NCBI RefSeq assembly: GCF_045037415.1 | Contig: NZ_CP173438.1 | Length of the DNA stretch: 64,000 nt | Direction: 5' to 3' (one strand) | Source of the DNA: Escherichia coli | GTDB taxonomy: Bacteria > Pseudomonadota > Gammaproteobacteria > Enterobacterales > Enterobacteriaceae | Shown here: positions 10,454 through 62,286 of the stretch, in pieces | Position numbering within the stretch: position 1 is the stretch's first letter | Layout: each line of letters starts with the position of its first letter | The notes under the pieces: model-generated | What the model saw: only the letters and a program-made list of their open reading frames with translations | What the model was told of the DNA's origin: nothing | Databases searched by the model: none | Translations under genes and position numbers: made by a program

Positions 10454-12079
10454 ATGAATATTTTCACAGAGGCTGCAAAACTCGAAGAGCAAAATTGTCC
10501 GTTTGCGATGGCGCAAATTGTTGATAGCCGAGGCTCAACCCCCCGCCATTCTGCACAAATGTTAGTGCGCGCCGATGGTTCTATCGTCGGTACAATTGGT
10601 GGCGGAATGGTTGAGCGGAAGGTGATTGAAGAGTCGCTTCAGGCATTGCAGGAACGTAAGCCGCGATTATTCCATGGACGTATGGCTCGTAACGGTGCGG
10701 ATGCTGTCGGGTCAGATTGTGGAGGTGCAATGTCAGTATTTATCAGCGTCCATGGTATGCGTCCACGTCTGGTGTTGATTGGTGCGGGGCATGTCAACCG
10801 GGCGATAGCCCAGAGTGCGGCGCTATTAGGATTTGATATCGCCGTTGCCGATATTTATCGCGAAAGCCTCAATCCTGAACTATTCCCACCATCAACCACG
10901 CTTCTCCATGCTGAGTCGTTTGGTGCGGCAGTGGAAGCACTGGATATTCGCCCTGATAATTTTGTCCTGATTGCCACGAATAATCAGGATCGTGAAGCCC
11001 TCGACAAACTCATTGAACAACCCATTGCATGGCTGGGGTTGCTGGCAAGTCGCCGCAAGGTTCAGCTTTTCCTACACCAATTGCGTGAGAAAGGCGTGGC
11101 TGAAGAACATATTGCCCGTTTACATGCGCCCGTTGGTTACAACATAGGTGCGGAAACGCCGCAGGAGATCGCCATCAGCGTGCTGGCAGAAATATTACAG
11201 GTGAAAAATAACGCGCCGGGTGGGCTGATGATGAAGCCTTCTCATCCTTCCGGACACCAGCTGGTGGTGATTCGCGGTGCGGGGGATATCGCCAGTGGTG
11301 TAGCGCTACGTCTGTATCATGCGGGTTTTAAAGTGATCATGTTGGAAGTGGAAAAACCGACAGTGATTCGTTGTACCGTGGCGTTTGCCCAGGCCGTGTT
11401 CGATGGCGAAATGACGGTCGAAGGCGTCACCGCCCGCCTGGCAACCAGCTCTGCGGAAGCGATGAAACTTACCGAACGCGGATTTATCCCTGTGATGGTA
11501 GATCCCACCTGTTCATTGCTTGATGAACTGAAACCGCTTTGCGTGGTGGACGCTATTCTGGCGAAACAGAATTTGGGAACGCGGGCAGATATGGCACCAG
11601 TAACAATCGCGCTTGGGCCGGGCTTTACTGCAGGGAAGGATTGTCATGCGGTAATTGAAACAAATCGCGGGCACTGGCTCGGTCAGGTGATTTACTCAGG
11701 TTGTGCGCAGGAGAATACCGGTGTTCCCGGCAATATTATGGGGCATACCACCCGACGAGTGATCCGCGCTCCTGCTGCAGGCATTATGCGATCCAACGTG
11801 AAATTAGGCGATCTGGTGAAAGAGGGCGATGTCATTGCCTGGATTGGTGAGCATGAAATTAAAGCACCGTTGACGGGGATGGTGCGTGGCTTGTTGAACG
11901 ACGGACTGGCCGTGGTCGGTGGTTTTAAAATTGGTGATATCGATCCTCGTGGTGAAACGGCTGATTTCACCAGCGTTTCTGATAAAGCCCGGGCGATTGG
12001 CGGCGGCGTACTTGAGGCGTTAATGATGTTGATGCATCAGGGCGTTAAAGCGACAAAAGAAGTGCTGGAAGTGGCTTAA
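10454..12079 (+). CDS. yqeB: XdhC/CoxI-family molybdenum hydroxylase maturation protein
   Basis: 541 aa; Rossmann-like LVLIGAGHV segment; follows yqeC by 47 nt. Confidence 0.88.
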   Translation: MNIFTEAAKLEEQNCPFAMAQIVDSRGSTPRHSAQMLVRADGSIVGTIGGGMVERKVIEESLQALQERKPRLFHGRMARNGADAVGSDCGGAMSVFISVHGMRPRLVLIGAGHVNRAIAQSAALLGFDIAVADIYRESLNPELFPPSTTLLHAESFGAAVEALDIRPDNFVLIATNNQDREALDKLIEQPIAWLGLLASRRKVQLFLHQLREKGVAEEHIARLHAPVGYNIGAETPQEIAISVLAEILQVKNNAPGGLMMKPSHPSGHQLVVIRGAGDIASGVALRLYHAGFKVIMLEVEKPTVIRCTVAFAQAVFDGEMTVEGVTARLATSSAEAMKLTERGFIPVMVDPTCSLLDELKPLCVVDAILAKQNLGTRADMAPVTIALGPGFTAGKDCHAVIETNRGHWLGQVIYSGCAQENTGVPGNIMGHTTRRVIRAPAAGIMRSNVKLGDLVKEGDVIAWIGEHEIKAPLTGMVRGLLNDGLAVVGGFKIGDIDPRGETADFTSVSDKARAIGGGVLEALMMLMHQGVKATKEVLEVA

Positions 12080-12087
12080 ATGAAAAT

Positions 12088-12113
12088 GGCCGGATGGTAT
12101 TACCCATCCGGCC
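12088..12113. terminator. Bidirectional hairpin terminator between convergent yqeB and yqeA
   Basis: GGCCGGATGG-tatta-CCCATCCGGCC followed by TTTAAATT. Confidence 0.6.
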
Positions 12114-12119
12114 TTTAAA

Positions 12120-13052: not shown

Positions 13053-13099
13053 TTTTCCTCACTCATCATTCTTGATTGTGTATAGATCCCTGGCAGTGG

Positions 13100-21023: not shown

Positions 21024-21897
21024 TGCAATTTCCCCCCGCCGCGGCGACGGCTTCGCTAATCACTTTTTTGGTCATCGTCTGGATGAGATGCAGACGAAAC
21101 TCTTTACTGGCCCGCCATGACGAACGCGGGGCGACATCTTGCAGGACTGATTCGCTGATGGCTTCCAGCGTTTGCAGGTTTAATGGCGCATTTTGTGCAG
21201 TCTGTTCGGCATGTTGGCAGCGAATCGGCGTTGGCGCGGCAACACCAAATGCCAGGCGTAATTCGCTGAAATTGCCGTTATCCAGTCGGCAATGTGCGGC
21301 GCAGCCAATTGTTGAAATATCCATTGCGTCGCGCATGGCATATTTAAAATGCGCGCTGCCCGCGTGTTCTTTCGGCTGTGGCGGAAAATGAAAGGCGACA
21401 AGGATTTCGTCATGCTCAAGAGACACTTTGCCCGGCCCGGTGTGAAAGCCATTAATCGGGACGAAACGAACACCGCGCGGGGAGTGGATCTCCAGTTTCG
21501 CGTCATAAATTAGCGTTGGCGTGGCAGAATCTGCGCTGGTGGCACCGTTGCAAATATTTCCGCCGTAGGTGGCGACATTACGGATCTGCGGCCCGGCGAT
21601 TGATGCAGCCGCAGCACATAACGCCGGGAGATGACGTTGAGTTACAGGATCTTCAATGAGCTGGGTAAATGTCGTTGCAGAGCCGATACGTAGCGCGCCA
21701 TCTTCCGCCAGCGTAATTCCCCGCAGCTCCGCCAGATTATGAATATCAACAATATGGCGATAACGGTCATTGTGATGGTGAAGCTGTATCAGTACGTCAG
21801 TGCCACCGGCGAGCAGTTTGGCCTGCGGGTTGTCAGTCAGCAGGTTGATGGCATCGGCAAGGGTTGCTGCGCGATGGTAAGAAGCAAAATCAAACAT
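20983..21897 (-). CDS. xdhB: FAD-binding subunit of xanthine dehydrogenase; here 304 aa with altered C-terminus (possible frameshift)
   Basis: [13 protein letters not shown] motif; ORF extends 41 nt into xdhC; expected length 292 aa by recall. Confidence 0.85.
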
Positions 21898-25452: not shown

Positions 25453-25526
25453 GCGGGCGTAGTTCAATGGTAGAACGAGAGCTTCCCAAGCTCTATACGA
25501 GGGTTCGATTCCCTTCGCCCGCTCCA
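25453..25526 (+). tRNA. glyU: tRNA-Gly (anticodon CCC)
   Basis: GCGGGCGTAGTTCAATGGTAGAACGAGAGCTTCCCAAGCTCTATACGAGGGTTCGATTCCCTTCGCCCGCTCCA; cloverleaf with 7-bp acceptor stem, CCC anticodon, encoded CCA. Confidence 0.95.
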
Positions 25527-25797
25527 ATTTATCTTCACATCATCTACCTGCCATTTTTGTTGTATCTGATTTTCTATATTATCTTAATTCAAGCGCTTCA
25601 GACTTTTCGCAATCGCCGTAATACTTCCCCATTTTTTTGTAAATAAAAAGCGTTTACGCAATGCAATCGTCATGTATCTTAAATAGTCTTATTTAAGATG
25701 TTCAGAACTCTTTGTGTGTTTAACTGGCTGATAATTATATAATATTACGAGAGAAGTGATAGAGCGGAATAATAACAAATGAACATTATGAAAACTG

Positions 25798-25832
25798 GGA
25801 TGGTTCAAAATTGAAGCAATTTTGAACCATCC
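25798..25832 (-). terminator. Rho-independent terminator after yqeG
   Basis: Perfect hairpin GGATGGTTCAAAATT-gaagc-AATTTTGAACCATCC, followed on the minus strand by CAGTTTTC. Confidence 0.55.
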
Positions 25833-25842
25833 ACAACGGATA

Positions 25843-27072
25843 TTAGCTAAAGAACATTACCGATACGCACAGGATACCCACGATCAGGGTAATCAGATTT
25901 CCGATGGAACGCCAGGGTTTAAGCGCCGGGATGAGATACGTTGACAGCGTAGGCATGATGAAAAGTATCATGGCAATGAGCGGGCCGCTGATCGCGTAAA
26001 TCATCGAAATCGCGTTCGGGTTAATGCAACAAACAATGAAGGTAATCAGCGATACCAACATAATTGATAGTGCGCGGTTAAATGCACGACTTTTCTTTAC
26101 ACCAACCTGCTGTAATGTTGTTTTGACGACCTCTGTGGCACCTTCAATAACGCCAAAGTACGTACCCAGGAATGATTTCGACATCGCAACTACTGCGACA
26201 ATAATCCCGGAAATTGACAACCATGCTGGGGCGTTCGGCAGCATAGAAAGCGCCGATAAAATGGTAACCCCTTCTTCTTTAGCCGCTTCAATATACGAAG
26301 GTGGAATAGAAAGCAGGCAGCTAAAGACAAAGAACAATACACTTATGCAGATGATGAGATAAGCGACTTTCATAATTTTTTTGCATTTATCCATAGCATG
26401 TTCGCCATATTTTTCACGTCTGTCTATGGCAAACGTAGAAATAATGGGCGTATGGCTAAAAGCGAAAACCATCACGGGAATCGATATCCATATCTGGTGA
26501 AGGGTATTCTGATTGAACTCTACCTGGGTTGTTAATAGATCAGGTTGCCAACTACCGACCAGGTAAATAGAAAGAAATAAGAAATAGGCAATCAATGGGA
26601 ATACCAAAAATCCCATTACCCGAATAGTGGCATGGCGTCCCATCAGAAAAATGAGATTCAGGATTAATACAACCCCCAGACTCACTAGCATACGGATGCG
26701 AAGATCAATAACCATATGCTTTGCCAGCTGTTCCGTAAGTGAGTTGGTAATTGCCACTGCATATATCAACACGACGACAAAAAAGGCGATGAAGTACAGC
26801 GTGGTAATCAGATTACCAATCTTCTTGCCATAGTAGTGTGTTACCGCGCCCGTTATCCCTTCACCTGCTGATGTTTTCGATGAGAGGATGAACTGGCATA
26901 AGGCTTTATGTGGCCAATATGTTAAAGGCCAGGCGACCAGAGCAGTAATAAACAGGACCACAGCCCCCGCCGAACCTAACTGAATAGGAAGGAAGAGCGT
27001 GCCTGCACCAACGGCTGTGCCGTAGAGTGCGAAACTCCACAGAGTTTCTTCTTTTGACCAAATATTAGACAT
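25843..27072 (-). CDS. yqeG: HAAAP-family amino acid permease
   Basis: 409 aa polytopic membrane protein resembling SdaC/TdcC/Mtr-type transporters. Confidence 0.88.
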   Translation of the reverse strand: MSNIWSKEETLWSFALYGTAVGAGTLFLPIQLGSAGAVVLFITALVAWPLTYWPHKALCQFILSSKTSAGEGITGAVTHYYGKKIGNLITTLYFIAFFVVVLIYAVAITNSLTEQLAKHMVIDLRIRMLVSLGVVLILNLIFLMGRHATIRVMGFLVFPLIAYFLFLSIYLVGSWQPDLLTTQVEFNQNTLHQIWISIPVMVFAFSHTPIISTFAIDRREKYGEHAMDKCKKIMKVAYLIICISVLFFVFSCLLSIPPSYIEAAKEEGVTILSALSMLPNAPAWLSISGIIVAVVAMSKSFLGTYFGVIEGATEVVKTTLQQVGVKKSRAFNRALSIMLVSLITFIVCCINPNAISMIYAISGPLIAMILFIMPTLSTYLIPALKPWRSIGNLITLIVGILCVSVMFFS

Positions 27073-36730: not shown

Positions 36731-36818
36731 CCCAGAGGTATTGATTGGTGAGATTATTCGGTACGCTCTTCGTACCCTGTCTCTTGCACCAACCTGCGCG
36801 GATGCGCAGGTTTTTTTT
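36731..36818 (+). ncRNA. omrA: OmrA small regulatory RNA (paralogue of OmrB)
   Basis: CCCAGAGGTATTGATTGGTGAGATTATTCGG...CCTGCGCGGATGCGCAGG plus T8 terminator; same 5' and 3' ends as OmrB. Confidence 0.9.
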
Positions 36819-36884
36819 CGCACCTAATTTACTGTCGCTCGCGTTCTTTATCTCGTGTAATCTCCCTCCATTCGCTTTTACTGA

Positions 36885-40251
<3,367 letters not shown>

Positions 40252-40254
40252 TAT

Positions 40255-40280
40255 TTAACGCCGGTTTTAACCGGCGTTAA
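40255..40280. terminator. Bidirectional terminator between convergent lplT and tas
   Basis: Perfect palindrome TTAACGCCGGTT-tt-AACCGGCGTTAA. Confidence 0.6.
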
Positions 40281-40282
40281 TC

Positions 40283-41323
40283 TTATGGTGCAGGATACGT
40301 ATAAACCTGATGCACCGCTTCAATTTCAGCTAATACGTCTTCGCTCAACTCCAGATGCAAACTTTCGACGTTAGTTTTCAGCTGCTCCATCGTGGTTGCG
40401 CCCAGCAGAGTGCTGGCAACAAACGGTTGACGGCGTACAAATGCGAGCGCCATCTGAGCAGGGTCCAGGCTATGACGTCTGGCGATATCAACATACGCCG
40501 CGACGGCTTTTTGCGTTTGCTCACCGCTATAGCGGGTGAAGCGACTAAAGAGCGTATTACGTGCGCCAGCGGGTTTTGCACCATTGAGATATTTCCCGGT
40601 CAGCGTGCCGAAACCCAGGCACGAATAGGCCAGCAGTTCGACCCCTTCATACTGGCTGACTTCTGCCAGACCTACTTCAAAACTGCGGTTTAACAGGCTG
40701 TAGGGGTTCTGAATGGTGACAATACGCGGCAGATCGTGTTTGTCCGCCAGATGCAGGTAGCGCATTACGCCAAATGCAGTTTCGTTCGACACGCCTATAT
40801 AACGAATTTTTCCCGCGCGTTGGTACTCTGCCAGTGCGTCCAGCGTATCCAGCAGCGAAACCGCAGGCGCAGAATCTGTCCAGCTATAACCGAGTTTGCC
40901 GAAGCAGTTGGTTGGGCGCTGCGGCCAGTGCACCTGATAGAGATCGAGGTAATCAGTCTGCAGACGCTTGAGGCTGTCATGCAGCGCTTCACGGATATTC
41001 TTCCGATCCAGCGCCTGATCCGGGCGGATGCCTTTGTCATTATTGCGCGACGGTCCGCTCACTTTGGAGGCGATAATTAACTTTTCGCGGCTGCCATGTT
41101 TCGCCAGCCAGTTGCCGACGTAGGTTTCGGTTAGCCCTTGAGTTTCGGGGCGCGGAGGTACTGGGTACATTTCGGCAACGTCGATAAGGTTAATGCCCTG
41201 AGCGACGGCATAGTCGAGTTGTGCGTGGGCGTCGGCTTCGCTGTTCTGTTCACCAAACGTCATCGTGCCAAGCCCCAGCGTGCTGACTTCCAGCGAACTG
41301 TGGGGTATACGGTGATATTGCAT
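40283..41323 (-). CDS. tas: NADP(H)-dependent aldo-keto reductase
   Basis: 346 aa; AKR-family N-terminus MQYHRIPHSSLEVSTLGLGTMTFG. Confidence 0.93.
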   Translation of the reverse strand: MQYHRIPHSSLEVSTLGLGTMTFGEQNSEADAHAQLDYAVAQGINLIDVAEMYPVPPRPETQGLTETYVGNWLAKHGSREKLIIASKVSGPSRNNDKGIRPDQALDRKNIREALHDSLKRLQTDYLDLYQVHWPQRPTNCFGKLGYSWTDSAPAVSLLDTLDALAEYQRAGKIRYIGVSNETAFGVMRYLHLADKHDLPRIVTIQNPYSLLNRSFEVGLAEVSQYEGVELLAYSCLGFGTLTGKYLNGAKPAGARNTLFSRFTRYSGEQTQKAVAAYVDIARRHSLDPAQMALAFVRRQPFVASTLLGATTMEQLKTNVESLHLELSEDVLAEIEAVHQVYTYPAP

Positions 41324-41430
41324 AGCCGTTTCCTTTTTATAATCACGACATAAGGAATATAAAAATGGCAGAGGGAAGGGAAAAGGGAAAGAGAAAAATC
41401 TTAAGGCCAGCCGGATGCTGACCTTATTTG

Positions 41431-41649
41431 TTAACGTTCAATAATTTGCGAAACATCATCACGGTTAATTTGCATCGCGTTACCTTGCTGATCGTGATAA
41501 CTCACCAGCCCGGTATCATCATCAATTTCAGGTTTTCCATCGGTCAAAATCATACGGCCATCTTTGGTCGCCATGACGTAATCACTGGAACACCCGGAAA
41601 CAGCAAACGCCAGTCCGACTGCAGAAATTATTACTGCCCATTTTTTCAT
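41431..41649 (-). CDS. ygdR: Small lipoprotein
   Basis: 72 aa; signal peptide with lipobox AVSGC. Confidence 0.85.
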
Positions 41650-41786
41650 CCGGTTATCCTCATTTGGCCCACCTATGATAATAGTCTGTTTATAAACCGA
41701 CGTTATATATCTTGAAAGCAGGAAAATCTTAAACTGTGAGGGTAACAGGAGTGAGTACGCCCTCCCGCAGGAGAGCGTACGGAGTA

Positions 41787-42500
41787 TCAGAGCGGATTCT
41801 TTTTGTTGCGAATCAGGTTTAGGCTTTCAACCGCAATAGAGAAGAACATCGCGAAGTAGATGTAACCTTTCGGTACGTGGATGTCGAAACTTTCCAGAAT
41901 CAGGGTAAAGCCCACCAGAATCAGGAAAGAGAGCGCCAGCATTTTTACCGAAGGATGGCGCTCGACAAAATCACCAATCGAGCGCGCGGCGAACATCATC
42001 ACGCCTACGGCAATCACCACGGCAGCCATCATAATAAACAGGTGATCTGACAGACCCACAGCGGTAATCACCGAGTCGAGGCTGAAGATAATATCCAGCA
42101 GCATAATCTGCACGATAGCGCCGAGGAATGATGAAACGCGTGTTTTCAGCCCTTCTTCTTCACCTTCGATGGATTCGTGGATTTCCTTGCTGGCTTTCCA
42201 GATAAGGAACAAGCCACCCAGAAGCAGAATCAAATCACGGGCGGAAATTTCCTGACTGAATATTGTAAAAAGCGGATTCGTCAGGCGCGTAACCCAGGCG
42301 ATGGATGCCAGCAGCGCCAGACGCATGACCATGGCTCCCGCCAACCCCAGACGGCGCGCATGAGCACGTTGTGCTGTTGGGAGCTTTGCCACCACCAGAG
42401 AAAGGAAAATAATATTGTCGATCCCAAGAACGATCTCCAGCAGCGTCAGCGTACCGAGCGCAAGCCAGGCGTTAGGATCGGTTATCCATGCAAATAACAT
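41787..42500 (-). CDS. ygdQ: TerC-family integral membrane protein
   Basis: 237 aa multi-TM protein. Confidence 0.88.
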
Positions 42501-42568
42501 CTAAAAAGCCCTGCCAAAAAAATGAAGCGGTAATTATATGCCCGGAAAGCGGCAGGTCAAAGCGATGG

Positions 42569-43258
42569 CTACTGGATCAGAAAATGACGGGCCAGTAGCG
42601 CACTGGTGAAATTCTTCTTCAAATAAAATCCGCGCGGCAGCGTCAGAATCCGTTCGCCCCGGGCACCAATAGCTTCGGTCAGCGCTTTCGCATTCGCTGC
42701 TTTCGGTCGTATCTGTAAATATTCCCCGTGACGAGCGGTGATCCGCTCAATCTGACCGAGAACAATCATATCCATTAATTCTTCCCAGTCTTCGCGTAGC
42801 TGCCGGTCTTCCTCTTCATTCGGGCTCCACAGCAACGGTGATCCTACGCGACGCTTTGCCAGCGGGATGCTGCGCTCGCCTTCAACCGGTATCCACAGCA
42901 CGCGTTTGAGCTTGTGGCGCACGTGGCTGGTTTCCCATGTCACCCCGCTATTGCCCGTTAACGGGGCAACACAAACGAATGTTGTTTCCAGCGGACGACC
43001 AAGACTATCCACAGGGATAGTTTTAAGTTCCACGCCCAGAGCAGCAAAATCTTGCTCAGGTTTACTCCCTGCGCTGGCACCTAGCCAGATCTCCAGTAAC
43101 ACGCCAATCCAGCCCTTATCGCGTTTTAAATTCTCCGGCGTAACCAGCCCGGCAAGTGCCGCCAGTTCTCCCAATGTATAACCAGAAAGTTGTTGTGCTT
43201 GCGCTAACAATTGTTCTTCAGTTTCGGGAGGAGAGAGCAGTGGGCGAGGTTGGGACAT
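42569..43258 (-). CDS. mutH: DNA mismatch repair endonuclease MutH
   Basis: 229 aa; N-terminus [33 protein letters not shown]. Confidence 0.95.
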
Positions 43259-43439
43259 GTCATGATACCTTGGTTAAAAAACAAACAGCAATTATGTGCC
43301 GAATATTCGCAGTGTAACTTTTTCCACATGCGTTGTTCAATTCTCTGATTTATATTGCTTTTTAGGTTGCCGGTAATCGAGTTGCGCAACACTGCAACGG
43401 GTTTTCCAAATCTGGTCACTGAAAATAAACAGGATCTTA

Positions 43440-43845
43440 CACCATGTTATCCACAGAAAGCTGGGATAACTGTGAAAAACCTTCACTACTGTTTCCATTT
43501 ACAGCCTTGACGTGCGACGAAACTCCAGTTTTTAGTGGTTCAGTGCTTAACTTAGTGGCACATTCTGTGGATAAATACGGCGTTGGTTGATCTTTCGCCA
43601 ACCCGTAAATGAGAGGTGTGACCTGGGTCACGAATTACTCTTTTTTATTACTCAAATCACATGTAATACATTGACTGATAATGAATATTTTAAAATCTCT
43701 ATATCTGTCTTATTCAGAATGCTCCGGGTTTTCCCGTAGTAATTCCGTAGTTCTTCACAACTCTATCCACAGAAAAGGTGAATAAAAACGGCTATCCACC
43801 CCTTCCTCTGTTTATAACTCTGCACATAACTGTGAGTTATTCAAT
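43440..43845. promoter_or_regulatory. DnaA-box cluster consistent with DARS2 (DnaA-reactivating sequence 2)
   Basis: Consensus DnaA boxes TTATCCACA (43447-43455) and TGTGGATAA (43566-43574, inverted), near-consensus CTATCCACA (43763-43771) and CTATCCACC (43792-43800); lies in the mutH-rppH spacer. Confidence 0.7.
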
Positions 43846-43942
43846 TGTTATTAGTGTGTAATGCCCTGCAGAGAGTGGTTTACCGTCTTCCTGGAGTATG
43901 AAACAATCATTCGTATATAAAGCTTTATTTTGAGGTAGTCCG

Positions 43943-44473
43943 GTGATTGATGACGATGGCTACCGCCCAAACGTAGGTATCGTGATTTGTAATCGCCAGG
44001 GGCAGGTAATGTGGGCCCGGCGATTTGGTCAGCACTCCTGGCAATTTCCGCAAGGCGGAATCAACCCCGGAGAATCCGCAGAGCAGGCGATGTACCGTGA
44101 ATTGTTTGAAGAAGTAGGATTAAGCCGCAAAGACGTTCGAATCCTTGCTTCAACGCGTAACTGGTTGCGCTACAAATTACCGAAACGTTTGGTGCGTTGG
44201 GACACGAAGCCGGTTTGTATCGGCCAAAAACAAAAATGGTTTCTCTTGCAGCTGGTGAGCGGCGATGCAGAAATCAATATGCAAACCAGCAGTACACCAG
44301 AGTTTGACGGCTGGCGATGGGTAAGTTACTGGTATCCAGTCAGACAGGTGGTGTCATTTAAACGTGATGTCTACCGTAGGGTAATGAAAGAGTTCGCGAG
44401 TGTGGTGATGTCACTGCAGGAAAATACGCCAAAACCACAAAACGCATCTGCTTATCGACGTAAAAGAGGTTAA
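43943..44473 (+). CDS. rppH: RNA pyrophosphohydrolase (Nudix)
   Basis: 176 aa, GTG start; Nudix box [22 protein letters not shown]. Confidence 0.95.
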
Positions 44474-50492: not shown

Positions 50493-53400
50493 ATGTTAAG
50501 GGTCTACCATTCCAATCGTCTGGACGTGCTGGAAGCGTTGATGGAGTTTATTGTCGAACGCGAACGGCTGGACGATCCTTTCGAACCAGAGATGATTCTG
50601 GTGCAAAGTACCGGTATGGCACAGTGGCTGCAAATGACCCTGTCGCAAAAGTTTGGTATTGCGGCAAACATTGATTTTCCGCTGCCAGCGAGCTTTATCT
50701 GGGATATGTTCGTCCGGGTGTTACCGGAGATCCCCAAAGAGAGCGCCTTTAACAAACAGAGCATGAGCTGGAAACTGATGACACTGCTGCCGCAACTGTT
50801 GGAGCGCGAAGACTTTACCCTGTTGCGGCATTATCTGACTGACGATAGTGACAAGCGAAAACTGTTCCAGCTTTCTTCAAAAGCGGCGGACCTGTTTGAC
50901 CAGTATCTGGTCTATCGTCCGGACTGGCTGGCACAGTGGGAAACAGGACATCTGGTAGAAGGGTTGGGAGAAGCACAGGCCTGGCAAGCGCCGTTGTGGA
51001 AGGCGTTGGTGGAATATACCGACGAACTTGGGCAACCGCGCTGGCACCGCGCCAATCTCTATCAGCGCTTTATCGAAACGCTGGAGTCCGCGACGACCTG
51101 CCCGCCGGGGTTACCTTCGCGCGTCTTTATATGCGGTATTTCCGCGTTACCGCCTGTTTATCTCCAGGCGCTACAGGCGCTGGGTAAACATATTGAAATC
51201 CATCTCCTGTTTACCAACCCCTGCCGTTATTACTGGGGCGACATTAAAGATCCCGCTTATCTGGCGAAACTACTGACTCGCCAGCGCCGACACAGTTTTG
51301 AAGATCGCGAATTACCGCTATTTCGCGACAGCGAAAATGCCGGGCAGCTCTTTAACAGCGATGGTGAACAGGATGTCGGCAACCCGCTGCTGGCTTCATG
51401 GGGCAAGCTTGGGCGCGACTACATTTATCTCCTTTCTGACCTGGAGAGCAGCCAGGAGCTGGACGCTTTTGTCGATGTGACGCCAGATAACCTGCTGCAT
51501 AATATTCAGTCTGACATTCTGGAACTGGAAAACCGCGCCGTTGCTGGTGTGAACATCGAAGAGTTTTCCCGTAGCGATAACAAACGCCCGCTTGATCCAC
51601 TGGATAGCAGTATCACCTTCCACGTTTGCCATAGCCCGCAGCGTGAAGTTGAAGTTTTACACGATCGCCTGCTGGCGATGCTGGAGGAAGACCCGACACT
51701 TACTCCGCGCGACATCATCGTGATGGTGGCTGATATCGACAGCTACAGTCCGTTTATTCAGGCTGTGTTTGGTAGCGCACCTGCGGATCGTTACCTGCCT
51801 TACGCCATTTCCGACCGTCGGGCGCGGCAGTCGCATCCTGTACTTGAAGCGTTTATCAGCCTGTTATCGTTGCCAGACAGCCGCTTTGTGTCGGAAGACG
51901 TGCTGGCATTACTGGATGTGCCGGTGCTGGCGGCGCGGTTTGACATCACCGAAGAAGGGCTGCGTTATTTACGCCAGTGGGTCAACGAGTCCGGCATTCG
52001 TTGGGGGATAGATGACGACAACGTTCGCGAGCTGGAACTTCCCGCTACCGGTCAACACACCTGGCGGTTTGGCCTGACGCGCATGTTGCTGGGCTACGCG
52101 ATGGAGAGCGCGCAGGGCGAGTGGCAATCGGTTCTACCTTATGATGAATCGAGCGGCTTAATTGCAGAACTGGTGGGGCATCTGGCTTCACTGCTAATGC
52201 AGCTAAATATCTGGCGTCGCGGGCTGGCGCAGGAGCGTCCGCTGGAAGAGTGGTTGCCGGTTTGTCGCGATATGCTCAACGCCTTCTTCCTGCCGGATGC
52301 GGAAACCGAAGCGGCGATGACGCTGATCGAACAACAATGGCAGGCGATTATCGCCGAAGGTTTAGGTGCGCAGTATGGCGACGCGGTGCCGCTGTCACTA
52401 TTGCGTGATGAACTGGCACAGCGCCTGGATCAAGAACGTATCAGCCAGCGTTTTCTCGCCGGACCGGTTAACATTTGTACTCTGATGCCAATGCGTTCAA
52501 TTCCGTTCAAAGTGGTTTGCCTGCTGGGAATGAACGACGGCGTTTATCCACGTCAGCTTGCGCCATTGGGCTTTGATCTGATGAGCCAGAAACCGAAGCG
52601 TGGCGACCGTAGCCGTCGCGATGACGACCGCTATCTGTTCCTGGAAGCGTTAATTTCCGCGCAGCAAAAACTCTATATCAGCTATATCGGGCGTTCCATT
52701 CAGGATAACAGTGAACGTTTCCCGTCGGTACTGGTGCAGGAACTGATCGACTACATCGGGCAAAGCCATTATCTACCGGGCGATGAAGCGCTCAACTGTG
52801 ATGAAAGCGAGGCAAGGGTAAAAGCGCATCTTACTTGCCTCCATACCCGAATGCCGTTTGATCCACAAAACTACCAGCCAGGCGAACGACAAAGTTATGC
52901 TCGTGAATGGCTACCTGCGGCCAGCCAGGCTGGTAAAGCACATTCTGAATTTGTTCAGCCGCTGCCATTTACCTTACCGGAAACCGTGCCGCTGGAAACG
53001 CTACAACGATTCTGGGCACATCCGGTGCGGGCATTTTTCCAGATGCGTTTGCAGGTGAACTTCCGTACCGAAGACAGCGAAATCCCCGACACCGAGCCAT
53101 TTATTCTGGAAGGACTTAGCCGTTATCAAATCAATCAGCAGTTATTGAATGCACTGGTTGAGCAGGATGATGCCGAACGCTTGTTCCGTCGCTTCCGGGC
53201 GGCAGGGGATTTACCGTATGGCGCTTTTGGTGAAATTTTCTGGGAAACGCAGTGTCAGGAGATGCAGCAGCTTGCCGACAGAGTCATTGCCTGTCGCCAG
53301 CCGGGGCAGAGTATGGAGATTGATCTCGCCTGCAACGGTGTGCAAATAACGGGCTGGTTGCCGCAGGTGCAGCCGGATGGCCTGTTGCGCTGGCGTCCCT

Positions 53401-53861
53401 CTTTATTAAGTGTGGCGCAGGGAATGCAACTTTGGCTGGAACACCTTGTCTACTGTGCCAGCGGTGGTAATGGTGAAAGTCGCCTTTTTCTACGCAAAGA
53501 CGGCGAGTGGCGTTTTCCGCCGCTTGCAGCCGAACAGGCTTTGCATTACCTCTCACAACTGATTGAGGGGTATCGTGAAGGAATGTCCGCGCCATTGCTG
53601 GTGTTACCTGAAAGTGGCGGCGCGTGGCTAAAAACCTGTTATGACGCGCAAAACGATGCCATGCTGGATGACGATTCCACGTTGCAAAAAGCCCGTACGA
53701 AATTCCTTCAGGCTTACGAAGGCAACATGATGGTGCGTGGCGAAGGTGATGATATCTGGTATCAACGGCTCTGGCGGCAATTAACACCAGAGACAATGGA
53801 GGCTATCGTTGAACAGTCGCAACGTTTCCTGTTACCGCTGTTTCGCTTTAATCAGTCATGA
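50493..53861 (+). CDS. recC: Exodeoxyribonuclease V gamma subunit
   Basis: 1122 aa; N-terminus MLRVYHSNRLDVLEALM. Confidence 0.97.
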   Translation: MLRVYHSNRLDVLEALMEFIVERERLDDPFEPEMILVQSTGMAQWLQMTLSQKFGIAANIDFPLPASFIWDMFVRVLPEIPKESAFNKQSMSWKLMTLLPQLLEREDFTLLRHYLTDDSDKRKLFQLSSKAADLFDQYLVYRPDWLAQWETGHLVEGLGEAQAWQAPLWKALVEYTDELGQPRWHRANLYQRFIETLESATTCPPGLPSRVFICGISALPPVYLQALQALGKHIEIHLLFTNPCRYYWGDIKDPAYLAKLLTRQRRHSFEDRELPLFRDSENAGQLFNSDGEQDVGNPLLASWGKLGRDYIYLLSDLESSQELDAFVDVTPDNLLHNIQSDILELENRAVAGVNIEEFSRSDNKRPLDPLDSSITFHVCHSPQREVEVLHDRLLAMLEEDPTLTPRDIIVMVADIDSYSPFIQAVFGSAPADRYLPYAISDRRARQSHPVLEAFISLLSLPDSRFVSEDVLALLDVPVLAARFDITEEGLRYLRQWVNESGIRWGIDDDNVRELELPATGQHTWRFGLTRMLLGYAMESAQGEWQSVLPYDESSGLIAELVGHLASLLMQLNIWRRGLAQERPLEEWLPVCRDMLNAFFLPDAETEAAMTLIEQQWQAIIAEGLGAQYGDAVPLSLLRDELAQRLDQERISQRFLAGPVNICTLMPMRSIPFKVVCLLGMNDGVYPRQLAPLGFDLMSQKPKRGDRSRRDDDRYLFLEALISAQQKLYISYIGRSIQDNSERFPSVLVQELIDYIGQSHYLPGDEALNCDESEARVKAHLTCLHTRMPFDPQNYQPGERQSYAREWLPAASQAGKAHSEFVQPLPFTLPETVPLETLQRFWAHPVRAFFQMRLQVNFRTEDSEIPDTEPFILEGLSRYQINQQLLNALVEQDDAERLFRRFRAAGDLPYGAFGEIFWETQCQEMQQLADRVIACRQPGQSMEIDLACNGVQITGWLPQVQPDGLLRWRPSLLSVAQGMQLWLEHLVYCASGGNGESRLFLRKDGEWRFPPLAAEQALHYLSQLIEGYREGMSAPLLVLPESGGAWLKTCYDAQNDAMLDDDSTLQKARTKFLQAYEGNMMVRGEGDDIWYQRLWRQLTPETMEAIVEQSQRFLLPLFRFNQS

Positions 53862-54036: not shown

Positions 54037-56925
54037 ATGCCCCGCAGCATCTGGTTCAAAGCATTATTGTTGTTTGTTGCCCTCTGGGCACCCTTAAGTC
54101 AGGCAGAAACGGGATGGCAGCCGATTCAGGAAACCATCCGTAAAAGTGATAAAGATAACCGCCAGTATCAGGCTATACGTCTGGATAACGGTATGGTGGT
54201 CTTACTGGTTTCTGATCCGCAGGCAGTTAAATCGCTCTCGGCGCTGGTGGTGCCCGTTGGGTCGCTGGAAGATCCTGAGGCGTACCAGGGGCTGGCACAT
54301 TACCTTGAACATATGAGTCTGATGGGGTCGAAAAAGTATCCGCAGGCTGACAGTCTGGCCGAATATCTCAAAATGCACGGCGGCAGTCACAATGCCAGCA
54401 CGGCACCGTATCGCACGGCTTTCTATCTGGAAGTTGAGAACGATGCCTTACCCGGTGCGGTAGACCGCCTGGCCGATGCTATTGCAGAACCCTTGCTCGA
54501 CAAGAAATACGCCGAACGTGAGCGTAATGCAGTGAATGCCGAATTAACCATGGCGCGTACGCGTGACGGGATGCGCATGGCACAGGTCAGCGCAGAAACC
54601 ATTAACCCGGCACACCCCGGTTCAAAGTTTTCTGGTGGTAACCTCGAAACTTTAAGCGACAAACCAGGTAATCCGGTACAGCAGGCGCTGAAAGATTTCC
54701 ACGAGAAGTACTATTCCGCCAATCTGATGAAGGCGGTTATTTACAGCAATAAACCGTTGCCGGAGTTGGCGAAAATGGCGGCGGACACCTTTGGTCGCGT
54801 GCCGAACAAAGAGAGCAAAAAACCGGAAATCACCGTGCCGGTAGTCACCGACGCGCAAAAGGGCATTATCATTCATTACGTCCCGGCGCTGCCGCGTAAA
54901 GTTCTGCGCGTTGAGTTTCGCATCGATAACAATTCAGCGAAGTTCCGTAGTAAAACGGATGAATTGATTACCTATCTGATTGGTAATCGCAGCCCTGGTA
55001 CACTTTCTGACTGGCTGCAAAAGCAGGGATTAGTTGAGGGCATTAGCGCCAATTCCGATCCTATCGTCAACGGCAACAGCGGCGTATTAGCGATCTCTGC
55101 GTCTTTAACCGATAAAGGTCTGGCGAATCGCGATCAGGTTGTGGCGGCCATTTTTAGCTACCTCAATCTGTTACGTGAAAAAGGGATCGATAAACAATAC
55201 TTCGATGAACTGGCGAATGTGCTGGATATCGACTTCCGTTATCCGTCAATCACCCGTGATATGGATTACGTCGAATGGCTGGCAGATACCATGATTCGCG
55301 TTCCTGTTGAGCATACACTGGATGCAGTCAATATTGCCGATCGGTACGACGCTAAAGCGGTAAAAGAACGTCTGGCGATGATGACGCCACAGAATGCGCG
55401 TATCTGGTATATCAGCCCGAAAGAGCCGCACAACAAAACGGCTTACTTTGTCGATGCGCCGTATCAGGTCGATAAAATTAGCGCACAAACTTTCGCTGAC
55501 TGGCAGAAAAAAGCCGCCAATATTGCGCTCTCCTTACCGGAGCTTAACCCCTATATTCCTGACGATTTCTCGCTGATTAAGTCAGAGAAGAAATACGACC
55601 ATCCAGAGTTGATTGTTGATGAGTCGAATCTGCGCGTGGTGTATGCGCCAAGCCGTTATTTTGCCAGCGAGCCCAAAGCTGATGTCAGCCTGATTTTGCG
55701 TAATCCGAAAGCCATGGACAGCGCCCGCAATCAGGTGATGTTTGCACTCAATGATTATCTCGCAGGGCTGGCGCTTGATCAGTTAAGCAACCAGGCGTCG
55801 GTTGGTGGCATAAGTTTTTCCACCAATGCTAACAACGGCCTTATGGTTAATGCTAATGGTTACACCCAGCGTCTGCCGCAGCTGTTCCAGGCTCTGCTGG
55901 AGGGCTACTTTAGCTATACCGCTACGGAAGATCAGCTTGAGCAGGCGAAGTCCTGGTATAACCAGATGATGGATTCCGCAGAAAAGGGCAAAGCGTTCGA
56001 GCAGGCGATTATGCCCGCGCAGATGCTCTCGCAAGTGCCGTACTTCTCGCGAGATGAACGGCGCAAAATTTTGCCCTCCATTACGTTGAAAGAGGTGCTG
56101 GCCTATCGCGACGCCTTAAAATCAGGGGCTAGACCAGAGTTTATGGTTATCGGCAACATGACTGAAGCCCAGGCAATAACGCTGGCACGCCATGTGCAAA
56201 AACAGTTGGGCGCTGATGGTTCAGAGTGGTGTCGTAACAAAGATGTCGTGGTCGATAAAAAACAATCCGTCATCTTTGAAAAAGCCGGTAACAGCACCGA
56301 CTCCGCACTGGCAGCGGTATTTGTACCGACTGGCTACGATGAATACACCAGCTCAGCGTATAGTTCTCTGTTGGGGCAGATCGTACAGCCGTGGTTCTAC
56401 AATCAGTTGCGTACCGAAGAACAGTTGGGCTATGCCGTGTTTGCGTTTCCAATGAGCGTGGGGCGTCAGTGGGGCATGGGCTTCCTTTTGCAAAGCAATG
56501 ATAAACAGCCTTCATTCTTGTGGGAGCGTTACAAGGCGTTTTTCCCAACCGCAGAGGCAAAATTGCGGGCGATGAAGCCAGAAGAGTTTGCGCAAATCCA
56601 GCAGGCGGTAATTACCCAGATGCTGCAGGCACCGCAAACGCTCGGCGAAGAAGCATCGAAGTTAAGTAAAGATTTCGATCGCGGCAATATGCGCTTCGAT
56701 TCGCGTGATAAAATCGTGGCCCAGATAAAACTGCTGACGCCGCAAAAAATTGCTGATTTCTTCCATCAGGCGGTGGTCGAGCCGCAAGGTATGGCTATTC
56801 TGTCGCAGATTTCCGGCAGCCAGAATGGGAAAGCCGAATATGTGCATCCTGAAGGCTGGAAAGTGTGGGAGAACGTCAGCGCGTTGCAGCAAACAATGCC
56901 CCTGATGAGTGAAAAGAATGAGTGA
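54037..56925 (+). CDS. ptrA: Periplasmic protease III (pitrilysin, M16 family)
   Basis: 962 aa; signal peptide; inverted zinc motif HYLEHM. Confidence 0.97.
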   Translation: MPRSIWFKALLLFVALWAPLSQAETGWQPIQETIRKSDKDNRQYQAIRLDNGMVVLLVSDPQAVKSLSALVVPVGSLEDPEAYQGLAHYLEHMSLMGSKKYPQADSLAEYLKMHGGSHNASTAPYRTAFYLEVENDALPGAVDRLADAIAEPLLDKKYAERERNAVNAELTMARTRDGMRMAQVSAETINPAHPGSKFSGGNLETLSDKPGNPVQQALKDFHEKYYSANLMKAVIYSNKPLPELAKMAADTFGRVPNKESKKPEITVPVVTDAQKGIIIHYVPALPRKVLRVEFRIDNNSAKFRSKTDELITYLIGNRSPGTLSDWLQKQGLVEGISANSDPIVNGNSGVLAISASLTDKGLANRDQVVAAIFSYLNLLREKGIDKQYFDELANVLDIDFRYPSITRDMDYVEWLADTMIRVPVEHTLDAVNIADRYDAKAVKERLAMMTPQNARIWYISPKEPHNKTAYFVDAPYQVDKISAQTFADWQKKAANIALSLPELNPYIPDDFSLIKSEKKYDHPELIVDESNLRVVYAPSRYFASEPKADVSLILRNPKAMDSARNQVMFALNDYLAGLALDQLSNQASVGGISFSTNANNGLMVNANGYTQRLPQLFQALLEGYFSYTATEDQLEQAKSWYNQMMDSAEKGKAFEQAIMPAQMLSQVPYFSRDERRKILPSITLKEVLAYRDALKSGARPEFMVIGNMTEAQAITLARHVQKQLGADGSEWCRNKDVVVDKKQSVIFEKAGNSTDSALAAVFVPTGYDEYTSSAYSSLLGQIVQPWFYNQLRTEEQLGYAVFAFPMSVGRQWGMGFLLQSNDKQPSFLWERYKAFFPTAEAKLRAMKPEEFAQIQQAVITQMLQAPQTLGEEASKLSKDFDRGNMRFDSRDKIVAQIKLLTPQKIADFFHQAVVEPQGMAILSQISGSQNGKAEYVHPEGWKVWENVSALQQTMPLMSEKNE

Positions 56926-59900
56926 TGTCGCCGAGACACTAGATCCTTTGCGCTTGCCCTTACAGGGCGAGCGCCTGATTGAAGCCTCTGCCGGCACAGG
57001 CAAAACCTTTACGATTGCGGCGCTCTATTTGCGCCTGTTACTTGGACTAGGCGGTTCGGCCGCCTTTCCCCGCCCGCTGACCGTTGAAGAACTGCTGGTG
57101 GTGACCTTTACCGAGGCTGCCACGGCAGAATTGCGTGGTCGTATCCGTAGCAATATCCACGAGTTGCGCATCGCCTGTCTGCGTGAAACCACCGACAATC
57201 CACTGTACAAACGCCTGCTGGAAGAGATCGACGATAAAGCGCAAGCCGCGCAGTGGTTGTTGTTAGCCGAGCGGCAGATGGATGAAGCGGCAGTCTTTAC
57301 TATCCACGGCTTTTGCCAGCGCATGCTCAACCTGAATGCCTTTGAATCCGGCATGCTGTTTGAGCAGCAGCTGATTGAAGATGAGTCTCTGCTACGCTAC
57401 CAGGCCTGCGCCGATTTCTGGCGTCGCCACTGCTACCCGCTGCCGCGTGAAATTGCCCAGGTCGTCTTTGAAACCTGGAAAGGGCCGCAGGCGTTGCTGC
57501 GCGATATTAATCGTTATCTGCAAGGCGAAGCGCCAGTTATCAAAGCACCGCCCCCCGATGATGAAACGCTGGCTTCCCGCCACGCGCAAATTGTGGCGCG
57601 TATTGATGCCGTAAAACAGCAGTGGCGCGACGCAGTGGGTGAACTGGATGCGCTGATCGAATCTTCTGGTATTGATCGACGCAAGTTTAACCGTAGCAAT
57701 CAGGCTAAATGGATCGAGAAGATCAGCGCCTGGGCAGAAGAAGAGACCAATAGCTATCAGTTGCCGGAGTCGCTGGAAAAATTCTCTCAGCGTTTCTTAG
57801 AAGATCGCACGAAAGCCGGGGGGGAAACCCCGCGACATCCACTGTTTGAGGCGATCGATCAACTGCTTGCAGAACCATTGTCGATCCGCGATCTGGTGAT
57901 CACCCGCGCATTGGCTGAGATCCGCGAAACAGTAGCGCGTGAAAAACGCCGCCGTGGCGAATTGGGTTTTGATGACATGTTAAGTCGGCTCGATTCCGCG
58001 CTGCGTAGTGAAAGCGGCGAGGTATTGGCAGCGGCGATCCGTACGCGATTCCCGGTGGCAATGATCGATGAATTTCAGGATACCGACCCCCAGCAGTACC
58101 GAATTTTTCGCCGTATCTGGCACCATCAGCCGGAAACCGCATTGTTGCTGATTGGCGACCCGAAACAGGCCATATATGCATTCCGGGGTGCGGATATCTT
58201 CACTTATATGAAGGCGCGTAGCGAAGTTCATGCTCACTACACCTTAGATACCAACTGGCGTTCCGCACCGGGAATGGTGAACAGCGTTAACAAACTTTTC
58301 AGCCAGACTGATGACGCGTTCATGTTTCGTGAAATACCGTTTATTCCTGTGAAATCTGCCGGGAAAAATCAGGCGTTACGCTTTGTGTTTAAAGGTGAAA
58401 TGCAGCCTGCGATGAAAATGTGGCTGATGGAAGGCGAAAGCTGCGGCGTTGGCGACTATCAAAGTACCATGGCGCAGGTATGTGCTGCGCAAATCCGCGA
58501 CTGGCTACAAGCCGGACAGCGGGGCGAAGCGTTGCTGATGAACGGCGACGATGCGCGTCCGGTGCGTGCTTCGGACATCAGTGTGCTGGTGCGCAGCCGC
58601 CAGGAGGCCGCTCAGGTGCGCGATGCCTTAACGCTGCTGGAAATCCCTTCCGTTTACCTTTCGAACCGCGACAGTGTTTTTGAAACTCTGGAAGCACAGG
58701 AGATGCTTTGGCTGTTGCAGGCGGTGATGACGCCCGAACGTGAGAACACCCTGCGCAGTGCGCTGGCAACGTCAATGATGGGGCTGAATGCGCTGGATAT
58801 TGAAACGCTGAATAATGACGAACATGCGTGGGATGCGGTAGTCGAAGAGTTCGATGGTTATCGGCAAATCTGGCGCAAACGTGGCGTTATGCCGATGCTG
58901 CGGGCGCTGATGTCGGCGCGTAACATTGCAGAAAACTTGCTGGCAACGGCAGGCGGTGAGCGGCGTCTTACCGATATCTTGCATATCAGCGAACTGCTAC
59001 AAGAAGCCGGAACGCAGCTGGAAAGTGAACATGCGCTGGTACGCTGGTTATCGCAACATATCCTCGAGCCAGACAGTAATGCCTCCAGCCAACAAATGCG
59101 CCTCGAAAGTGATAAACATCTGGTGCAGATTGTCACGATACACAAATCAAAAGGGCTGGAATATCCGCTGGTCTGGTTGCCATTTATTACCAATTTCCGC
59201 GTCCAGGATCAGGCGTTTTATCACGATCGCCACTCGTTTGAGGCCGTTCTGGATCTTAATGCTGCGCCAGAAAGCGTCGACCTCGCGGAGGCCGAACGTC
59301 TGGCGGAAGATCTGCGTTTACTTTACGTGGCGCTGACGCGTTCGGTTTGGCATTGCAGTCTCGGCGTTGCACCGCTGGTGCGCCGTCGTGGCGATAAAAA
59401 AGGTGATACCGACGTCCACCAAAGTGCGCTCGGGCGTTTGCTGCAAAAAGGAGAACCGCAAGATGTGGCAGGGCTTCGTACCTGCATTGAAGCGTTGTGC
59501 GATGATGATATTGCCTGGCAAACGGCACAAATTGGTGATAACCAGCCCTGGCAGGTTAATGATGCATTAACTGCAGAACTGAATGCGAGGACGCTACAAC
59601 GATTGCCCGGCGATAACTGGCGTGTCACCAGCTACTCCGGTTTGCAGCAGCGTGGTCACGGTATCGCTCAGGATCTGATGCCACGGTTGGATGTTGATGC
59701 CGCAGGCGTGGTCAGCGTCGTTGAAGTACCGACGTTAACACCGCATCAGTTCCCGCGCGGTGCGTCACCGGGGACATTCTTGCACAGTTTGTTTGAAGAC
59801 CTCGATTTTACCCAGCCGGTTGACCCGAACTGGGTACAGGAAAAACTGGAGCTCGGTGGCTTTGAACCGCAGTGGGAACCGGTGTTGACTGAGTGGATCA

Positions 59901-60460
59901 CGGCTGTCCTCCTGGCACCTCTCAATGAAACGGGTATTAGCCTGAGTCAGCTTTCCGATCGCGATAAACAGGTGGAGATGGAGTTTTACCTGCCAATTAG
60001 CGAACCGCTCATCGCCAGCCAGCTTGATGCACTAATTCGCCAGTTTGACCCGCTATCTGCTGGCTGCCCGCCGCTGGAGTTCATGCAGGTACGTGGCATG
60101 TTAAAAGGCTTTATCGATCTGGTGTTCCGCCACGAAGGGCGTTATTACCTGCTCGACTATAAATCCAACTGGTTGGGTGAAGACAGTTCGGCTTACACCC
60201 AACAGGCTATGGCAGCGGCAATGCAGGCACACCGCTATGATCTGCAATATCAGCTTTATACCCTGGCGCTGCACCGTTATCTGCGCCATCGTATTGCTGA
60301 TTACGACTATGAGCGCCACTTTGGCGGCGTTATTTATCTGTTCCTGCGTGGCGTTGATAAAGAACATCCGCAACAAGGGATCTACGCGACCCGACCCAAC
60401 GCCGGGTTGATTGACCTGATGGATGAGATGTTTGCCGGTATGACCCTGGAGGAGGCGTAA
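56918..60460 (+). CDS. recB: Exodeoxyribonuclease V beta subunit (helicase-nuclease)
   Basis: Start at [30 protein letters not shown] (1180 aa); Walker A; overlaps ptrA end by 8 nt. Confidence 0.97.
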
Positions 60461-62286
60461 TGAAATTGCAAAAGCAATTACTGGAAGCTGTGGAGCACAA
60501 ACAGCTACGCCCGCTGGACGTGCAGTTTGCCCTGACCGTGGCGGGAGATGAACATCCTGCCGTCACCCTCGCGGCGGCACTATTAAGTCATGATGCCGGA
60601 GAGGGACACGTTTGTTTGCCGCTTTCACGACTGGAAAATAACGAGGCGTCGCATCCGCTGTTGGCGACCTGTGTCAGTGAAATCGGTGAGCTACAAAATT
60701 GGGAAGAATGCTTGCTGGCTTCACAAGCGGTCAGCCGGGGAGATGAACCAACGCCGATGATCCTCTGTGGCGATCGTCTTTATTTGAATCGCATGTGGTG
60801 TAACGAGCGCACAGTGGCACGTTTTTTCAACGAAGTGAATCATGCCATTGAGGTTGATGAAGCTCTACTGGCGCAAACCCTGGACAAACTTTTTCCAGTA
60901 AGCGATGAAATTAACTGGCAAAAAGTTGCGGCGGCAGTGGCGCTGACGCGGCGGATTTCGGTGATTTCCGGCGGTCCTGGCACCGGTAAAACGACCACCG
61001 TAGCGAAGTTGCTGGCAGCCTTAATTCAAATGGCCGACGGAGAACGCTGCCGTATCCGTCTGGCTGCACCAACGGGTAAAGCTGCCGCGCGCTTAACCGA
61101 ATCTCTCGGCAAGGCTTTGCGACAGTTACCGCTGACCGCTGAACAAAAGAAACGCATTCCGGAAGATGCCAGCACTTTGCACCGATTGCTGGGCGCGCAG
61201 CCGGGTAGCCAGCGTTTACGTCATCATGCCGGTAACCCGCTGCATCTTGATGTGCTGGTGGTAGATGAAGCGTCAATGATCGATCTTCCTATGATGTCGA
61301 GACTGATCGACGCCTTGCCCGATCATGCGCGAGTGATCTTTCTCGGCGATCGTGATCAACTGGCCTCGGTTGAGGCTGGGGCTGTGCTGGGCGATATCTG
61401 CGCTTATGCCAACGCGGGCTTTACCGCCGAGCGTGCCGGGCAGTTGAGCCGCCTGACGGGAAGCCACGTTCCAGCAGGAACTGGCACAGAAGCGGCATCT
61501 TTGCGCGACAGCCTCTGCCTGCTGCAAAAAAGCTATCGTTTCGGCAGCGATTCTGGCATTGGTCAGTTAGCTGCGGCGATTAACCGAGGTGATAAAACGG
61601 CAGTGAAAACCGTTTTTCAGCAGGATTTTACTGATATCGAAAAACGGCTTTTACAGAGTGGCGAAGATTATATTGCGATGCTTGAGGAAGTTCTTGCGGG
61701 TTACGGACGTTATCTGGATCTGCTGCAAGCGCGTGCCGAGCCGGATTTAATCATTCAGGCGTTCAATGAGTACCAGCTTTTGTGCGCCCTGCGGGAAGGA
61801 CCGTTTGGCGTGGCTGGATTGAATGAGCGAATTGAGCAATTTATGCAACAGAAGCGCAAAATTCATCGTCATCCGCACTCTCGTTGGTACGAAGGTCGAC
61901 CAGTGATGATTGCCCGTAATGACAGCGCGCTTGGGTTGTTTAATGGCGATATTGGTATTGCGCTGGATCGCGGGCAGGGGACGCGCGTCTGGTTTGCGAT
62001 GCCGGACGGCAATATTAAGTCTGTGCAACCGAGTCGCCTGCCAGAGCACGAAACGACGTGGGCGATGACGGTACATAAATCGCAGGGATCGGAGTTCGAC
62101 CATGCGGCGTTGATTTTACCGAGTCAACGCACGCCGGTAGTAACGCGAGAGCTGGTTTACACCGCGGTGACCCGCGCGCGTCGCCGTCTGTCGCTGTATG
62201 CCGATGAGCGCATTTTAAGTGCGGCAATTGCCACGCGCACCGAGCGGCGCAGTGGTCTGGCGGCGTTGTTTAGTTCACGGGGATAA
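60460..62286 (+). CDS. recD: Exodeoxyribonuclease V alpha subunit (helicase)
   Basis: 608 aa; Walker [10 protein letters not shown]; start overlaps recB stop (TAATG). Confidence 0.97.

Follow-up and report, generated by a model that had tools for sequence, protein, structure and literature searches.

The locus and its Chi sites

The window analysed here, a stretch of 64 kb, derives from an Escherichia coli chromosome: in a megablast search of complete E. coli genomes virtually every genome gives a match, and the window differs from strain 4/1-1 (NZ_CP023844.1) only by one 1-nt homopolymer indel and one single-nucleotide polymorphism at 44614. Our subject is Chi (crossover hotspot instigator), 5'-GCTGGTGG-3' (complement CCACCAGC), the octamer that regulates RecBCD in E. 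coli and other Enterobacteriaceae and is recognised by its RecC subunit. An exhaustive search of both strands over the whole window finds ten matches to the exact sequence of E. coli Chi on the plus strand and none on the minus strand (CCACCAGC is absent from the plus strand), a split of 10:0. The initial annotation had reported at least six such octamers on the plus strand, and the six coordinates that it gave (11260, 36496, 39720, 54243, 57094 and 61254) are all exact; four further sites, at 5569, 7979, 21535 and 39517, had been overlooked. The strand bias, which had been left open, is real and complete, far from the equal numbers on the two strands that would speak against it. The sites are given here with their presence in the homologous region of seven genomes (4/1-1, NC101, E371, K-12 MG1655, the O157-like strain 319, O103 ML775 and OkiPb01709; 97.5% to 100% identity to the window).

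5569-5576, plus strand: Chi, antisense in ygfK (coding strand CCACCAGC, codons VHQH near the C-terminus); all seven strains
7979-7986, plus strand: Chi, antisense in ygfK (PTS codons); lineage-specific
11260-11267, plus strand: Chi, sense in yqeB, frame xxG-CTG-GTG-Gxx (QLVV); all seven strains
21535-21542, plus strand: Chi, antisense in xdhB (ATS codons); all seven strains
36496-36503, plus strand: Chi, intergenic between galR and aas, at -38 to -31 from the omrB 5' end; all seven strains
39517-39524, plus strand: Chi, sense in lplT (GCT-GGT-GGT, AGG); window, 4/1-1 and NC101 only
39720-39727, plus strand: Chi, sense in lplT, frame xxG-CTG-GTG-Gxx (SLVG); all seven strains
54243-54250, plus strand: Chi, sense in ptrA, frame xxG-CTG-GTG-Gxx (ALVV); six of the seven strains
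57094-57101, plus strand: Chi, sense in recB codons 59-62 (LLVV, within the stretch EELLVVTFT); all seven strains
61254-61261, plus strand: Chi, sense in recD codons 265-268 (VLVV, directly before DEASM); all seven strains

Six sites thus lie on the coding strand of plus-strand genes (yqeB, lplT twice, ptrA, recB and recD), three are antisense in minus-strand genes (ygfK twice and xdhB) and one is intergenic; the placement of copies inside recB and recD had been noted correctly. The enzyme that reads Chi is encoded in the window itself, by full-length open reading frames (ORFs) on an E. coli chromosome:

50493-53861, plus strand: recC, 1122 aa, intact ORF
56918-60460, plus strand: recB, 1180 aa, intact ORF, helicase-nuclease subunit
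60460-62286, plus strand: recD, 608 aa, intact ORF, fast helicase subunit

All gene models of the window translate cleanly. The gene order is xanQ, xdhD, ygfM, ssnA, ygfK, mocA, yqeC, yqeB, arcC, hyuA, ygeY, dpaL, ygeW, ygeV, xdhCBA, actS, glyU, yqeG, yqeF, kduID, araE, ygeA, lysR, lysA, galR, omrB/omrA, aas, lplT, tas, ygdR, ygdQ, mutH, ygdT, rppH, ptsP, lgt, thyA, ppdAB, ygdB, ppdC, recC, ptrA, recB, recD, argA and amiC.

Several local features touch individual sites. The sole intergenic Chi (36496-36503) overlaps the -35 region of the promoter of the sRNA gene omrB (36534-36615; Rfam OmrA-B, 86 bits), and GCTGGCGA stands at the paralogous position in front of omrA (36731-36818). In yqeB, positions 11254-11267 read ACACCAGCTGGTGG, a near-perfect palindrome around CAGCTG with GCTGGTGT as its minus-strand copy; substituting C for the A at 11254 would be enough to give Chi on both strands. 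Near the 3' terminus of xdhB, a short distance upstream of where xdhC starts, the window reads six C in a row (C6; TTTCCCCCC, 21026-21031); strain 4/1-1 has C7 there and the six other strains have TTTTCCCCCC. The window is 1 nt shorter, and its XdhB frame extends to 304 aa, against 292, with the final residues changed (GGKLQ and stop replaced by 17 other residues); the difference could be a true variant or a sequencing error. A tie between this frameshift and the Chi at 21535 was considered and rejected, the indel lying ~500 bp away and being a homopolymer change at the 3' end of the gene. Finally, several strains (for example, NZ_CP124495.1 and NZ_CP145655.1) carry an IS1 insertion, seen as ~777 bp extra between two aligned pieces, at the equivalent of 36000-44000; the window is without it, and the IS1-bearing strains are otherwise 100% identical over that interval.

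Replication direction and the leading strand

It had been proposed that the plus strand is the reverse of the K-12 map direction and that Chi sits in leading-strand orientation, and both proposals hold. The genes recD, recB, ptrA and recC are on the minus strand of MG1655 (NC_000913.3, 2.950-2.962 Mb), and by blastn the window aligns to NC_000913.3 in reverse, from 3,024,691 down to 2,948,941. K-12 oriC is annotated at 3,925,744-3,925,975, ~0.9-1.0 Mb from the window region, and dif, for which NC_000913.3 holds no annotation, was located by sequence match at 1,590,750-1,590,777. Because the K-12 interval lies between dif and oriC, and because the alignment is reversed, the fork enters the window at position 1 and moves towards 64000, which makes the plus strand the leading strand.

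Base composition points the same way. The GC skew of the plus strand is +0.041 overall and its cumulative curve climbs steadily, so that the sign of the skew, a comparison that the initial annotation had asked for, agrees with the strand that carries Chi. Moreover, the skew at third codon positions (GC3 skew), read on the plus strand, is +0.115 for plus-strand genes and +0.105 for minus-strand genes; since it is alike in both gene orientations, the skew is associated with replication and not with transcription. The FtsK-orienting motif KOPS (GGGNAGGG) is also found only on the plus strand, 5:0, at 5290, 7145, 27505, 41373 and 61972. KOPS resembles Chi in being a G-rich octamer with leading-strand polarity, here on the same strand; it differs in its reader, which is FtsK in chromosome segregation rather than RecBCD, and in its count, which is within the shuffle expectation (4.85), so that only its orientation is informative, as an independent sign of a plus strand directed towards dif. 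All ten Chi sites accordingly lie on the strand identified as leading by colinearity with K-12, by the positions of oriC and dif, by the GC and GC3 skews and by KOPS, and the polarity of Chi in the window fixes the direction of replication through it.

Chi against composition, codon usage and turnover

Ten sites are more than composition predicts. Shuffles of the window that preserve dinucleotides contain on average 2.02 Chi, both strands combined, and none of 100 reaches ten. A more demanding null model shuffles synonymous codons within each gene, which keeps the protein and the codon usage of that gene, the fixed intergenic site being counted in the plus-strand mean; it yields 3.2 sites on the plus strand, with a probability of about 3e-4 of reaching ten or more, and 1.2 on the minus strand, where none at all is expected with P = 0.29. 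Markov models of order 3-5 predict 4.0-4.8 sites on the plus strand and 2.3-2.8 on the minus strand, and a model of order 6 predicts 7.2 and 2.8. By the shuffles, the codon shuffles, the Markov models and the glyU islands described below, Chi is over-represented relative to composition, notably on core DNA. We do not regard the absence of Chi from the lagging strand as significant by itself: the codon-shuffle null gives it a probability of 0.29, the comparison with genome averages one of 0.03-0.06, and the suggestion was rejected on these values.

Polarity was examined through the slots that the encoded proteins permit, that is, the places where the peptide allows the octamer through synonymous choice. 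Chi fills 9 of the 40 permitted slots for the plus strand and none of the 32 for the minus strand (Fisher P = 0.0035). Genes of either orientation show this asymmetry: sense slots are used in 6 of 32 cases in plus-strand genes vs 0 of 23 in minus-strand genes, and antisense slots in 3 of 8 cases in minus-strand genes vs 0 of 9 in plus-strand genes. Close relatives of the octamer behave differently from Chi. The 24 one-mismatch neighbours occur 64 times on each strand (Fisher P = 0.0018 vs Chi), and the 167 anagrams of the same composition are split 231:170, 57.6% on the plus strand (P = 0.006 vs Chi), while Chi is the joint most strand-skewed octamer in the window. GC skew does favour a sequence such as Chi, which with five G and one C gains from the excess of G over C on the leading strand, as the anagrams illustrate; composition alone, however, gives about 1.4-1.6:1, not 10:0, and the one-mismatch neighbours are evenly divided. 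Within the window, polarity belongs to the exact octamer, and not to G-richness, the CTG-GTG pair or gene orientation alone.

Among the seven strains, the homologous DNA invariably holds 10 or 11 Chi on the strand equivalent to the plus strand of the window and none on the other. Seven sites are common to all of them (5569, 11260, 21535, 36496, 39720, 57094 and 61254) and 54243 is found in six; 7979 and 39517 are lineage-specific, and alternative sites occur elsewhere at window-equivalent positions 22356, 39378, 49148 and 51005, each difference being a single transition. The equivalent of 7979 is ACTGGTGG in K-12, the O157-like strain, O103 and OkiPb01709. The site at 51005, within recC, is present in K-12 and two other strains and is missing from the window. 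Turnover is illustrated by lplT: position 39517 holds Chi in the window, 4/1-1 and NC101, with GTTGGTGG at 39378; in E371, K-12, the O157-like strain, O103 and OkiPb01709 it is 39378 that holds Chi, with GCCGGTGG at 39517. Every strain carries the site at 39720 and one of the other two. Individual Chi sites turn over, and their number and polarity stay constant.

The interval from glyU (tRNA-Gly) to the yqeG stop (25453-25843) has a gap of only 316 bp, and this integration hotspot is empty in the strain studied here. Elsewhere it is occupied by an ETT2 remnant of 11.9 kb (K-12), by the ETT2 type III secretion island of 29.2 kb (the O157-like strain) or by integrase-bearing, phage-like elements (O103, 15.5 kb; NC101; OkiPb01709, 37.8 kb). 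The islands are AT-rich (36-41% GC). Four of the five, those of K-12, the O157-like strain, O103 and NC101, contain no Chi, and the fifth, that of OkiPb01709, contains 7:6, without skew. Islands that are mostly free of Chi agree with the published enrichment of Chi on the core genome (PMC8022716).

For the recB and recD sites we also scanned species-representative genomes with a degenerate pattern for the LLVV-containing peptide of recB, in which Chi was not forced; this gave 120 loci, nearly all from Enterobacteriaceae. The exact octamer is present at the recB codons in 75 of the 120 loci and at the recD codons in 38 of the 45 that reach the recD site. The third position of Val is G more often inside Chi than in the adjacent Val codon, both in recB (97/120, 81%, vs 82/120, 68%) and in recD (41/45, 91%, vs 27/45, 60%), in counts that are uncorrected for kinship. 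Over ~1 Mb around recB in the 120 genomes, with the ascertained site masked, Chi is distributed 190:26 in favour of the recB strand (88%), against 2030:770 (72.5%) for the one-mismatch neighbours and 62.5% for the anagrams, a direction of polarity that agrees with the controls within the window. The recB LLVV stretch we take to be helicase motif Ia, and the recD stretch VLVV-DEASM presumably corresponds to motif II of the superfamily 1 (SF1) helicases. The Chi sites of recB and recD need no special explanation, since they coincide with conserved Leu-Val-Val peptides written with the preferred codons CTG and GTG; their wide conservation in Enterobacteriaceae is a small curiosity, and no evidence of a special role.

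What the Chi sites represent

We conclude, with a probability of roughly 0.93, that the ten octamers are ordinary chromosomal Chi sites of E. coli, all oriented for RecBCD moving towards oriC. Leading-strand Chi of this kind is the textbook pattern and already known biology. The likeness to known Chi comprises the exact octamer, an E. coli host with intact recBCD, leading-strand polarity, predominance of the CTG/GTG frame and enrichment on core DNA. In MG1655, there are 1008 Chi, 75.5% of which are oriented for broken-fork repair; 99% are in ORFs and, of those, 79% are on the coding strand and 68% in the CTG/GTG frame (bioRxiv 10.1101/2021.07.08.451572). Chi is, moreover, over-represented on the core genome and conserved in Enterobacteriaceae (PMC8022716). 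PMC12748557 treats AddAB of Bacillus subtilis rather than RecBCD of E. coli and does not enter the argument. Scaled to 64 kb, the MG1655 norm is 13.9 sites, 10.5 leading and 3.4 lagging, and the ten leading sites of the window are thus average, at one correctly oriented site per 6.4 kb vs ~6.1 kb for the genome (1008 at 75.5% in 4.64 Mb). The one difference, a local polarity of 100% vs ~75%, is within sampling variation (P about 0.06) and of no substance. As a sample the window is typical and falls at the polarised end of the range.

The same comparison supplies some of the observations that weigh against reading selection into these sites. Ten of ten is not significantly extreme next to a genome-wide polarity of 75.5% (0.755^10 = 0.06), and a lagging strand devoid of Chi, where 3.4 sites would be expected, is a mildly low count (Poisson P = 0.033). 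Of the six sense-strand sites, five lie in the frame xxG-CTG-GTG-Gxx (Leu-Val, then a codon beginning with G), as an account based on codon usage predicts. The conservation of the octamers within E. coli does not exceed that of background codon positions (3 variable positions vs 3.9 expected, in a comparison of eight E. coli sequences that has little power), which gives no demonstration of purifying selection on individual sites. The cross-species samples share ancestry, and their nominal P values overstate the evidence.

On a view argued recently on codon-based grounds (bioRxiv 10.1101/2021.07.08.451572), count and polarity would both follow passively from codon usage (CTG for Leu, GTG for Val), co-oriented genes and the skew of G over C, with no selection for Chi. 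Besides the frame of the sense sites and their ordinary conservation within E. coli, it can draw on the lean of G-rich anagrams towards the plus strand (57.6%) and on the codon-shuffle null, which itself splits 73:27 (3.2 vs 1.2), near the genome-wide 75.5%. That null, however, accounts for only a third of the plus-strand sites (P about 3e-4). Moreover, lagging-strand genes hold three of the ten sites in antisense, yet all 23 of their sense slots are left unused; neighbours that differ from Chi by one mismatch but keep the CTG-GTG core lack polarity (64:64 overall, TCTGGTGG 7:6); and polarity across the 120 species is stronger for Chi (88%) than for its neighbours (72.5%). We therefore consider a purely passive origin unlikely, and the polarity is probably maintained, at least in part, by selection. 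A stronger proposition, that the recB and recD sites (EELLVVTFT and VLVVDEASM) are kept by selection on the DNA signal beyond the constraints of peptide and codon, and that selection acts on local polarity whatever the codon usage and gene orientation, seems to us improbable; its second part, if true, would count against the recent proposal that the frequency and orientation of Chi are fully explained by codon usage.

More specific still is the idea that Chi within recB and recD has a dedicated role, such as protecting or regulating the recBCD locus, and is conserved for that reason. The exact octamer in 75 of 120 (recB) and 38 of 45 (recD) species representatives, and the preference for G at the third position of Val inside Chi over the adjacent Val, would fit such a role. 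Species are not independent samples, however, and LLVV and VLVV are constrained helicase motifs for which CTG and GTG are the preferred codons. The sites in ptrA, lplT and yqeB are equally conserved within E. coli, and the absence from the window of the recC site of K-12 and two other strains indicates that sites in the recBCD locus turn over. We know of no mechanism by which a Chi within a gene regulates that gene, and this too makes a dedicated role highly improbable. As for a chance cluster, within 64 kb, of an octamer that is common anyway, it has in its favour that the sites are few (n = 10) and that several other octamers in the window split 8:0 or 9:0; against it stand the 100 dinucleotide shuffles, none of which reaches ten, the recurrence of 10-11:0, from a partly different set of sites, in strains that diverge by about 2.5%, and the match to the known genome-wide pattern. 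With the codon nulls and the neighbour controls added to the shuffles and the strain comparison, chance is effectively refuted already and hardly deserves credence.

Regarding the ten octamers as ordinary Chi, their function can be placed in the known action of the enzyme. Having entered at a double-strand end, RecBCD unwinds the DNA and degrades it; RecC reads 5'-GCTGGTGG-3' on the 3'-ended strand, with the enzyme coming from the 3' side of the octamer, and after Chi the cutting of the 3' strand is attenuated and RecA is loaded. Were a fork travelling from left to right to break in the window, RecBCD would enter the resulting one-ended double-strand end and degrade from right to left. As the 3'-ended strand carrying GCTGGTGG passed through RecC, the enzyme would pause, cutting of the 3' strand would stop and RecA would be loaded onto the 3' tail. 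The RecA-coated tail could then invade the sister duplex, and the fork would be rebuilt. All ten sites should be readable by an enzyme going from high to low coordinates, towards oriC, as from the one-ended break of a collapsed fork (for this logic of orientation, see bioRxiv 10.1101/2021.07.08.451572), and each is predicted from its sequence to be active. Given one oriented Chi per 6.4 kb and partial recognition, a break anywhere in the window would be made recombinogenic within a few kb or, at most, some tens of kb.

The finding has little significance beyond annotation: the window behaves as core chromosome typical of E. coli, from the oriC-to-dif replichore that is replicated towards lower K-12 coordinates. 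Although a window of this size is far too small to settle the existing debate on codon usage, the local controls bear on it: the even split of the one-mismatch neighbours (64:64) and the use of permitted slots (9/40 vs 0/32) indicate that the polarity of Chi here is not a mere shadow of codon usage and gene orientation.

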